From Escherichia coli (lineage in GTDB: Bacteria; Pseudomonadota; Gammaproteobacteria; Enterobacterales; Enterobacteriaceae), in assembly GCF_003334315.1 (NCBI RefSeq), contig NZ_QOWR01000007.1: a DNA stretch of 64,000 nucleotides; one strand, 5' to 3'. The notes beneath the pieces were generated by a model, which searched no databases, had not been told where the DNA came from, and saw only the letters and a list, made by a program, of their open reading frames with translations. Positions within the stretch are counted from its first letter, which is position 1, and each line of letters starts with the position of its first letter. This document shows, in pieces, positions 41,142 to 41,340 of the stretch. A program made the position numbers and the translations under genes.

Positions 41142-41340
41142 ATGAATTCGACAATCTGGCTGGCGCTTGCCCTGGTTTTGGTACTGGAAGGTTTAGGGCC
41201 GATGCTTTACCCGAAGGCATGGAAGAAGATGATCATCTGCGATGACCAATTTGCCCGATAATATTTTACGTCGTTTTGGCGGTGGACTTGTGGTTGCGGG
41301 CGTTGTGGTCTACTACATGTTGAGGAAAACGATTAGCTGA
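41142..41340 (+). pseudogene. yjeT: yjeT (DUF2065 small inner-membrane protein) interrupted by a +1 frameshift
   Basis: ORF A 41142-41261 (39 aa, MNSTIWLALALVLVLEGLGPMLYPKAWKKMIICDDQFAR*) and ORF B 41242-41340 in the +1 frame (MTNLPDNILRRFGGGLVVAGVVVYYMLRKTIS*); deleting one base in ATGATCATCTGCG (41229-41241) fuses them into a 65-aa two-helix protein. Confidence 0.6.

Follow-up and report, generated by a model that had tools for sequence, protein, structure and literature searches.

Between hflC and purA, where Escherichia coli should carry one small gene, yjeT, the 64,000-nucleotide stretch analysed here (contig NZ_QOWR01000007.1, referred to as the window) holds two shorter open reading frames (ORFs). 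This raises the question of whether yjeT has really been lost by mutation in this strain and, if so, why this particular base should have been inserted at this particular place. The answer considered likely, taken as a whole, is that the window carries a real loss-of-function yjeT pseudogene, that the lesion is recurrent, and that a template-switch hotspot at a quasi-palindrome is its best explanation.

Layout of the locus and the split yjeT frame

According to the ORF list and the annotation of related genomes, yjeT is flanked in the window by hflC (40056-41060) and purA (41444-42742). The same order is found in annotated complete genomes, as the initial annotation had assumed, and the arrangement hflC-yjeT-purA is also present in Citrobacter. 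The gene is transcribed within a complex yjeF...hfq-hflXKC-yjeT-purA...rlmB operon (PMC4161252). Three features describe the locus in the window:

41083-41123, + strand: probable hflC terminator, a hairpin followed by a T-run just past the hflC stop codon (inverted repeat; terminator-like site at 41095-41110, then TTTT)
41142-41261, + strand: truncated yjeT frame, from the ATG at 41142 to the TAA at 41259-41261, 39 codons (sequence, ORF list, Pfam, hydropathy)
41242-41340, + strand: orphaned C-terminal part of yjeT with transmembrane helix 2, from the ATG at 41242 to the TGA at 41338-41340, 32 codons (sequence, ORF list, hydropathy)

The terminator hairpin forms the upstream boundary of the yjeT unit. 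The 39-aa product, MNSTIWLALALVLVLEGLGPMLYPKAWKKMIICDDQFAR, is made of 31 native residues that include transmembrane helix 1, followed by 8 out-of-frame residues (ICDDQFAR), and a precomputed match to Pfam PF09838 (DUF2065) is recorded for this product as well as for its intact homologues. The 32-aa orphan ORF, MTNLPDNILRRFGGGLVVAGVVVYYMLRKTIS, lies in the +1 frame relative to the 39-codon ORF, which is the original frame of yjeT, and its ATG is the native Met34 codon. No good Shine-Dalgarno sequence was seen by eye upstream of this ATG; the orphan ORF could in principle be translated. The two frames share 20 nt (41242-41261), and purA is located 183 nt downstream of the premature stop.

Hydropathy analysis placed one hydrophobic segment in each half, with helix 1 in the 39-aa product and helix 2 in the separate ORF. 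An intact YjeT/DUF2065 gene would be an uninterrupted two-helix ORF of about 65 codons, and the window has 39 + 32 codons in its place. The ORFs and the hydropathy profile bear out what had been described earlier, namely a 39-codon frame closed by the TAA at 41259-41261 with the second helix in the +1 frame at 41242-41340. They also agree with the proposal that the gene is inactivated, the two-helix protein being lost and its helices lying in separate ORFs. As a loss-of-function pseudogene, yjeT of the window is ordinary in kind.

The inserted base

Two positions distinguish the allele of the window:

41235, + strand: inserted A, the sole difference from intact alleles (alignment; the only true 1-bp indel relative to strain AHM9C68I in ~63 kb)
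41336, + strand: A/G polymorphism, Ser65/Gly65 (A in the window, G in all 17 other carriers examined)

The initial annotation had attributed the split to a single-base insertion and had suggested alignment with yjeT of other E. coli strains. When the segment was aligned over 301 nt to K-12 and strain CP53, exactly one extra base appeared, seen as ATGATC[A]TCTGCG, and the intact alleles lack it. Relative to CP53, the A at 41235 is exactly one difference over the entire 301 nt. Because the neighbours of this A are C and T, the position of the insertion is unambiguous and does not belong to a homopolymer. Its removal yields the 65-aa protein WP_001089296.1, as annotated in CP53 and AHM9C68I, so that the restoration of a 65-codon YjeT predicted for this deletion matches an annotated protein; the YjeT sequence given in the initial annotation also proved correct against annotated proteins. 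WP_001089296.1 differs from the K-12 protein WP_001089295.1 in the last residue only, which is Ser instead of Gly. If the yjeT mutation were not real, the strain would show the site sequence ATGATCTCTGCG.

A quasi-palindrome at the insertion site

The inserted A falls within two inverted repeats:

41227-41238, unstranded: perfect 12-bp palindrome AGATGATCATCT made by the insertion (wild type AGATGATC-TCT), centred on the Dam GATC site at 41231-41234
41230-41248, unstranded: second inverted repeat improved by the same A, with arms TGATCATC (41230-41237) and GATGACCA (41241-41248) and the loop TGC

A random single-base insertion in the window would create a palindrome of at least 12 bp with P = 0.0029, and the chance that an inserted base lies inside two distinct perfect inverted repeats is P = 0.0037. 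The second repeat has five contiguous Watson-Crick pairs (TCATC/GATGA), one mismatch and two more pairs, the mismatch being A-C on the + strand and G-T on the - strand, with an 8-pair stem on the minus strand. In the wild type, TC_TC is bordered on both sides by GATGA, and each arm specifies the same missing A. Several features expected of a quasi-palindrome mutation are found at this site: complementarity is gained in two repeats (P ~0.003-0.004), the arm-specified change (+A) is the one found alone, and the change recurs, being present in at least 12 haplotypes and dominant over other yjeT nulls. The stability of the hairpins gives no support, since the DNA folds are weak (-4.2 kcal/mol) and no better than those of shuffled sequence (z about -0.5).

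The quasi-palindrome is absent from the Salmonella, Klebsiella and C. freundii orthologues, where different codons are used at this position; in C. koseri the motif is retained only in part. The C. koseri equivalent of the +A product was absent from ~15 billion proteins, a search of low power given that partial motif.

In E. coli, quasi-palindromes have been documented as hotspots of template switching, with thyA and lacZ reporters as examples, and the process is strand-biased (PMC7202029). Mutations of this class need arms and replication and are stimulated by loss of ExoI/ExoVII or by AZT; the yjeT case is known from sequence alone. In the mechanism proposed for yjeT, the nascent strand would briefly copy the opposite arm and then return to its template. 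Copying of either GATGA arm would add exactly one A, generating both AGATGATCATCT and the hairpin TCATC-tgc-GATGA. The +A allele could then persist at low frequency because yjeT is dispensable, on the supposition that its loss is nearly neutral. On balance, we lean towards quasi-palindrome templating as the cause of the +A. The more specific proposal of an E. coli-specific hotspot, where two arms around the Dam GATC site both template +A and make it by far the commonest yjeT loss in the wild, is put forward tentatively and may well not hold.

Other sources of the extra base were tried and rejected. A distant template would have required a second copy of the mutant 20-mer, and none was present in the window with up to 3 mismatches allowed; there was also no relevant direct repeat near the insertion from which a direct-repeat origin could be derived. 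A symmetrical quasi-palindrome model was likewise discarded, because the reciprocal single-T deletions that it predicts, by which one or the other GATGA arm would lose its unpaired T, were absent from 5,426 complete genomes and from the protein/gene index. The missing reciprocal corrections count against templating as the cause, but are compatible with strand bias.

Occurrence of the allele and other ways of losing yjeT

Carriers were counted with a 33-mer centred on the inserted base, every 28-nt seed being required to span the insertion. This 33-mer matched 7 of 5,426 complete E. coli genomes, all seven of which (7/7) are annotated by PGAP as having a frameshifted yjeT, and the uninterrupted wild-type 32-mer was exact in 5,158. 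Neither the exact wild-type 32-mer (window 41220-41251) nor the +A 33-mer was found in the remaining 261, which presumably carry nearby SNPs, such as that of the M30I variant (P0019). The complete-genome carriers come from livestock, poultry, humans and water.

The exact 39-aa product was also found on 460 contigs and in 630 index blocks (NCBI, JGI, ENA, Logan), from sources that include draft genomes as well as MEGAHIT-style k141 contigs of short-read metagenomes. The comparable figure for the intact Gly allele is 105,139 index blocks; the Gly-ending version of the 32-aa ORF is called on 26 contigs. Frequencies drawn from this large protein collection count index blocks, not genomes, and the allele frequency is roughly ~0.1-0.6%. 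In each of the public carrier loci fetched (17/17) the inserted base is the same.

Changes of equal consequence next to the insertion do not share this abundance. Nine alternative products were looked up exactly among ~15 billion proteins and none was retrieved; besides the C. koseri equivalent mentioned above, they were the products of six nearby E. coli frameshifts (+C, +G or +T at the same position, -TC, and -1 in the adjacent TCTC) and of two +1 variants in the following codons. Other yjeT nulls were found, comprising S3*, E16*, -1 deletions in GGG and CCC runs, loss of a G at position 102 of the 300 nt aligned, and removal of 4 bp at the start codon, but they are varied and individually rare. 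The +A product accounts for 630 index blocks versus 237 combined for two C-terminal fragments, and these 237 pool other null alleles with contig-end and alternative-start calls, many C-terminal-fragment records being mere contig ends or alternative starts. No truncated YjeT forms occurred among the best 120 homologues of intact YjeT, all of which are full-length.

It could be argued that recurrence is mainly driven by selection, with loss of YjeT, or the two half-proteins, being advantageous in some niches and no raised mutation rate. The existence of several further null alleles in nature and the range of carriers (livestock, poultry, humans, water) fit this idea, and a benefit of loss is compatible with a gene that lacks an assigned function. 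However, selection for loss should enrich many null types, whereas one insertion dominates (630 vs 237 blocks) and neighbouring frameshifts of equal consequence are absent. In addition, YjeT keeps its length of 65 aa throughout Enterobacteriaceae, at 80-98% identity, and the +A allele remains rare. Since one specific event dominates yjeT loss, mutational bias is favoured over selection for loss, which we regard as unlikely. If the mutational reading is true, the +A rate would be perhaps one or two orders of magnitude above that of the summed other nulls.

Three records met during this survey deserve mention. The carrier APEC 102026 has an internal stop in yjeM, which is annotated there as a pseudogene (L004, 1-744). 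In the carrier SC516 the mutL CDS measures 1,884 nt (L010, 12914-14797) versus 1,848 nt in other strains, a length polymorphism of a mismatch-repair gene in a yjeT +A carrier. Finally, the 45-aa protein WP_368074026.1 (P0011), which falls into one cluster (>=90% identity) with C-terminal fragments of E. coli YjeT, is entered as a DUF2065 domain-containing protein of Staphylococcus aureus on a 2.78-Mb contig; this label is probably due to contamination or a mislabelled record.

Genuine mutation or assembly error

The window is near-identical to several complete genomes without the yjeT insertion. Compared with the closest of them, AHM9C68I, it shows 19 substitutions and two gaps in ~63 kb of alignment. 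One gap is the yjeT A and the other (29310) is an alignment offset between tandem tRNA-Gly copies, the same offset that contains 2 of the 19 substitutions (29320 and 29323). Over the 5.2 kb around yjeT there are 0 substitutions between the window and this non-carrier. Given that the yjeT A is the only true 1-bp indel in ~63 kb, the assembly of the window is not indel-prone. None of the marks of an artefact, that is, a homopolymer, an indel-rich assembly or restriction to a single technology, applies to the yjeT +A.

The initial annotation had posed the alternative of a real lesion or an assembly error, and the data favour the former, the base having been judged from the assembled sequence. An extra A produced by sequencing or assembly, with an intact yjeT in the strain, is very unlikely. 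In its favour it can be said that the combination of Ser65 and insertion shown by the window occurs in none of the 5,426 complete genomes, that the window's own Ser-ending 32-aa C-terminal ORF is absent from the protein collection, and that some of the public carriers and look-up assemblies (L018, L024, L027, L028) are error-ridden long-read assemblies. Nevertheless, the inserted A is outside a homopolymer, in ~63 kb without any other true 1-bp indel against the nearest relative, and the identical allele is found in short-read metagenome, draft and complete genomes from many laboratories. Moreover, the +A is inherited within clones, a systematic error should show up at a frequency well above 0.13%, and a random one would not repeat at one base. 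The yjeT insertion is thus held, on the basis of these sequence comparisons, to be very probably a real mutation in this strain.

The error-ridden long-read assemblies are GCA_046575635, ERZ1714329 and the NCTC records GCA_900448195 and GCA_900448355 (L018, L024, L027 and L028), in which hflC, hflX, purA or rnr are found in many small ORFs. They should not be counted for any yjeT allele; L018, the only +A carrier among the four, was given no weight.

The tandem tRNA-Gly array lies upstream of queG (window 29227-29414) and varies in copy number, with 3 copies in most strains and 5 in UTAK-1; in the carrier loci L004-L010 it is located around 7700-8200. Apparent single-base indels at this array arise because copy-number variation shifts the alignment. 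A further difference concerns insertion sequences, as AHM9C68I has IS1 insertions in yjeM and yjeJ that are absent from the window. With a few SNPs and the yjeT A set aside, it is mainly in these insertions that the two differ:

Window 11559-11825 and ~21310-22075; AHM9C68I (L012) 10930-11627 and 21997-22694: IS1 differences

Repeated origin or spread by recombination

Over 40 kb, the seven complete-genome carriers and the window diverge from one another by 8-28 SNPs per kb, the one exception being UTAK-1 and OkiPb01711, a clonal pair with 0.1 SNPs per kb over the 40 kb. When 18 carriers, including the window, were aligned over 5.2 kb, at least 12 haplotypes were distinguished. One carrier does not differ from K-12 in the 3.3 kb compared, and the haplotype of the window is that of the non-carrier AHM9C68I. 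Six different point-variant backgrounds likewise bear the frameshifted tail. Three of the haplotypes were met more than once, represented by UTAK-1, OkiPb01711 and GCA_046646205, by DETEC-S566 and a metagenome contig, and by the L22F variant of KTE60 and 28 more contigs; their resampling from unrelated sources indicates that the +A is stably inherited. To our knowledge, identical non-homopolymer insertions on many backgrounds are rare.

At position 41336 the 17 other carriers have G and the window has A, which argues that the insertion of the window is independent, any imported tract having to be shorter than 473 bp. Taken together, the haplotypes make it quite probable that the +A arose repeatedly in unrelated E. 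coli lineages.

The same distribution might be obtained from a single origin of the insertion, followed by short-tract homologous recombination into many backgrounds. The yjeT region is indeed highly conserved (>=99% identity in 5,040 genomes), and the SNP-free spans around the insertion reach 130-1,859 bp between carrier haplotypes, which is compatible with short tracts. Such spread would nonetheless need 11 or more short-patch events, none of them bringing a flanking marker, and the tract entering the lineage of the window would have to end <=101 bp downstream and 29-372 bp upstream of the insertion. A donor allele at ~0.1% would presumably seldom be the imported one, and a templated base as the exclusive change fits mutation bias. 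As the donor allele is so rare, recombinational spread from one origin appears much less likely than repeated mutation, and we consider it highly improbable.

Decoding of the split frame

Programmed +1 frameshifting or re-initiation, by which a functional YjeT or a split protein would still be produced, is extremely unlikely: the frames do have 20 nt in common (41242-41261) and the native Met34 codon does open the second ORF, but the second frame is open only from 41233, and inspection of 41233-41261 revealed no known +1 shift motif or stimulator and no Shine-Dalgarno sequence at a working distance. Because ~99.9% of genomes and all orthologues examined are uninterrupted, this is not an evolved recoding site. 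The arrangement is found in 7 of 5,426 genomes, with 5,158 uninterrupted, and orthologues of other genera are uninterrupted 65-aa ORFs; the early judgement that programmed frameshifting is improbable therefore stands. As in prfB, two overlapping frames jointly encode one protein at yjeT; unlike in prfB, ~99.9% of E. coli and all orthologues examined lack the interruption, and neither a shift site nor a stimulator is present.

A phase-variable locus was rejected as well, since there is no repeat tract at yjeT. The allele resembles phase-variable contingency loci in that a recurrent frameshift at a fixed site turns the gene off, but reversible switching is not expected because the perfect palindrome leaves no template for reversion. 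An everyday counterpart is the 'frameshifted' pseudogene of PGAP, and the exact allele is so annotated in seven RefSeq complete genomes. Most PGAP pseudogenes are lineage-specific or due to homopolymers, whereas the yjeT +A is a non-homopolymer change present in at least 12 haplotypes.

Control sites and comparison with known hotspots

If the architecture of the site were enough to explain the recurrence, comparable quasi-palindromes should behave alike. In the window, 592 single-base insertions would complete a palindrome of >=12 bp, and 220 of them were tested, 44 being GATC-centred and 176 non-GATC-centred and giving >=14 bp. The completed variants numbered 0 in the 5,426 genomes, both for the 44 GATC-centred controls and for the 176 longer-palindrome (>=14 bp) controls, so that the expected likeness failed at all sites (0/220). 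The query for the 176 sites consisted of concatenated 33-mers and was usable only in that there was no match at >=99% identity and no second place in any genome. A match of the second control query to fxsA was dismissed as an artefact, two sites 32 nt apart having rebuilt a near-wild-type stretch. Most of the mapped GATC-centred controls are in coding sequence, where selection would remove frameshifts; several, however, belong to dispensable genes (ampC, frd, ula, aidB, mscM and yjf genes) or are intergenic. A C inserted at window position 38922, in hflK, would make the same 12-mer, AGATGATCATCT, as in mutant yjeT, yet none of the 5,426 genomes has it.

Because 0/220 controls recur, the quasi-palindrome architecture alone does not explain the hotspot. 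The structure may be necessary, but it is not sufficient, and some further factor must be at work, be it double templating, the local context of replication or transcription, the GATC site or simply tolerance of yjeT loss.

The comparison with the thyA and lacZ QP5/QP6 hotspots is instructive in both directions. The lacZ QP5/QP6 reporters are reportedly due to Lovett and colleagues, and the quasi-palindrome model is said to go back to Ripley (1982). As in those hotspots, the yjeT +A perfects an imperfect inverted repeat with a base templated by the opposite arm, and it recurs at one site and in one direction, fitting the documented strand bias (PMC7202029). In contrast to them, the yjeT allele is known from natural population data and not from a selection experiment, and its arms are short (a spacer-less 12-bp palindrome, and 8-nt arms that contain one mismatch and enclose a 3-nt loop). 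Also unlike in the reporter systems, two arms template the same base at yjeT, and 220 comparable sites nearby are without such recurrence.

Conservation of YjeT and significance of its loss

YjeT, a member of the DUF2065 family, is an inner-membrane protein of 65 aa with two helices. Its homologues across Enterobacteriaceae, equally of 65 aa and 80-98% identical, indicate by their conservation that intact YjeT is normally maintained, which suggests that the protein is of some use. On the other hand, YjeT is dispensable in nature, because null alleles recur, though at low frequency. No relative of YjeT was found in the PDB. In the literature searched, mentions of yjeT are confined to lists of expressed or overexpressed genes and to Tn-seq screens, where it is mildly negative in Dickeya and required under starvation in a Salmonella screen; neither a function for yjeT nor a link to this mutation is offered there. 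The frameshift itself is already known, being flagged in seven RefSeq genomes, and it is the homoplasic, palindrome-completing nature of the allele that seems undescribed in the literature searched; the initial annotation does not mention it either.

In practical terms, the allele should be annotated as a true pseudogene and not 'corrected', and it can be expected in about 1 in several hundred E. coli genomes. Since the site is homoplasic, it is unsuitable as a clonal marker in phylogenetics or typing. For mutation research, it offers a natural test case for template switching and for why only some imperfect palindromes are hot. If the hotspot is true, it would join a small number of quasi-palindrome hotspots that can be seen directly in population genomes. 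Natural isolates might then have in it a built-in reporter of template switching, and it could point to the reason why one quasi-palindrome is hot and 220 neighbours are not. Furthermore, yjeT adjoins hflKC, and the tolerated repeated loss of the gene shows that its conserved protein is dispensable in nature.

One observation concerns gene starts. In Klebsiella, yjeT (L042 and L043, 301-555) is annotated as encoding 84 aa, with a 19-residue N-terminal extension, versus 65 aa elsewhere, which probably reflects a different choice of start codon.
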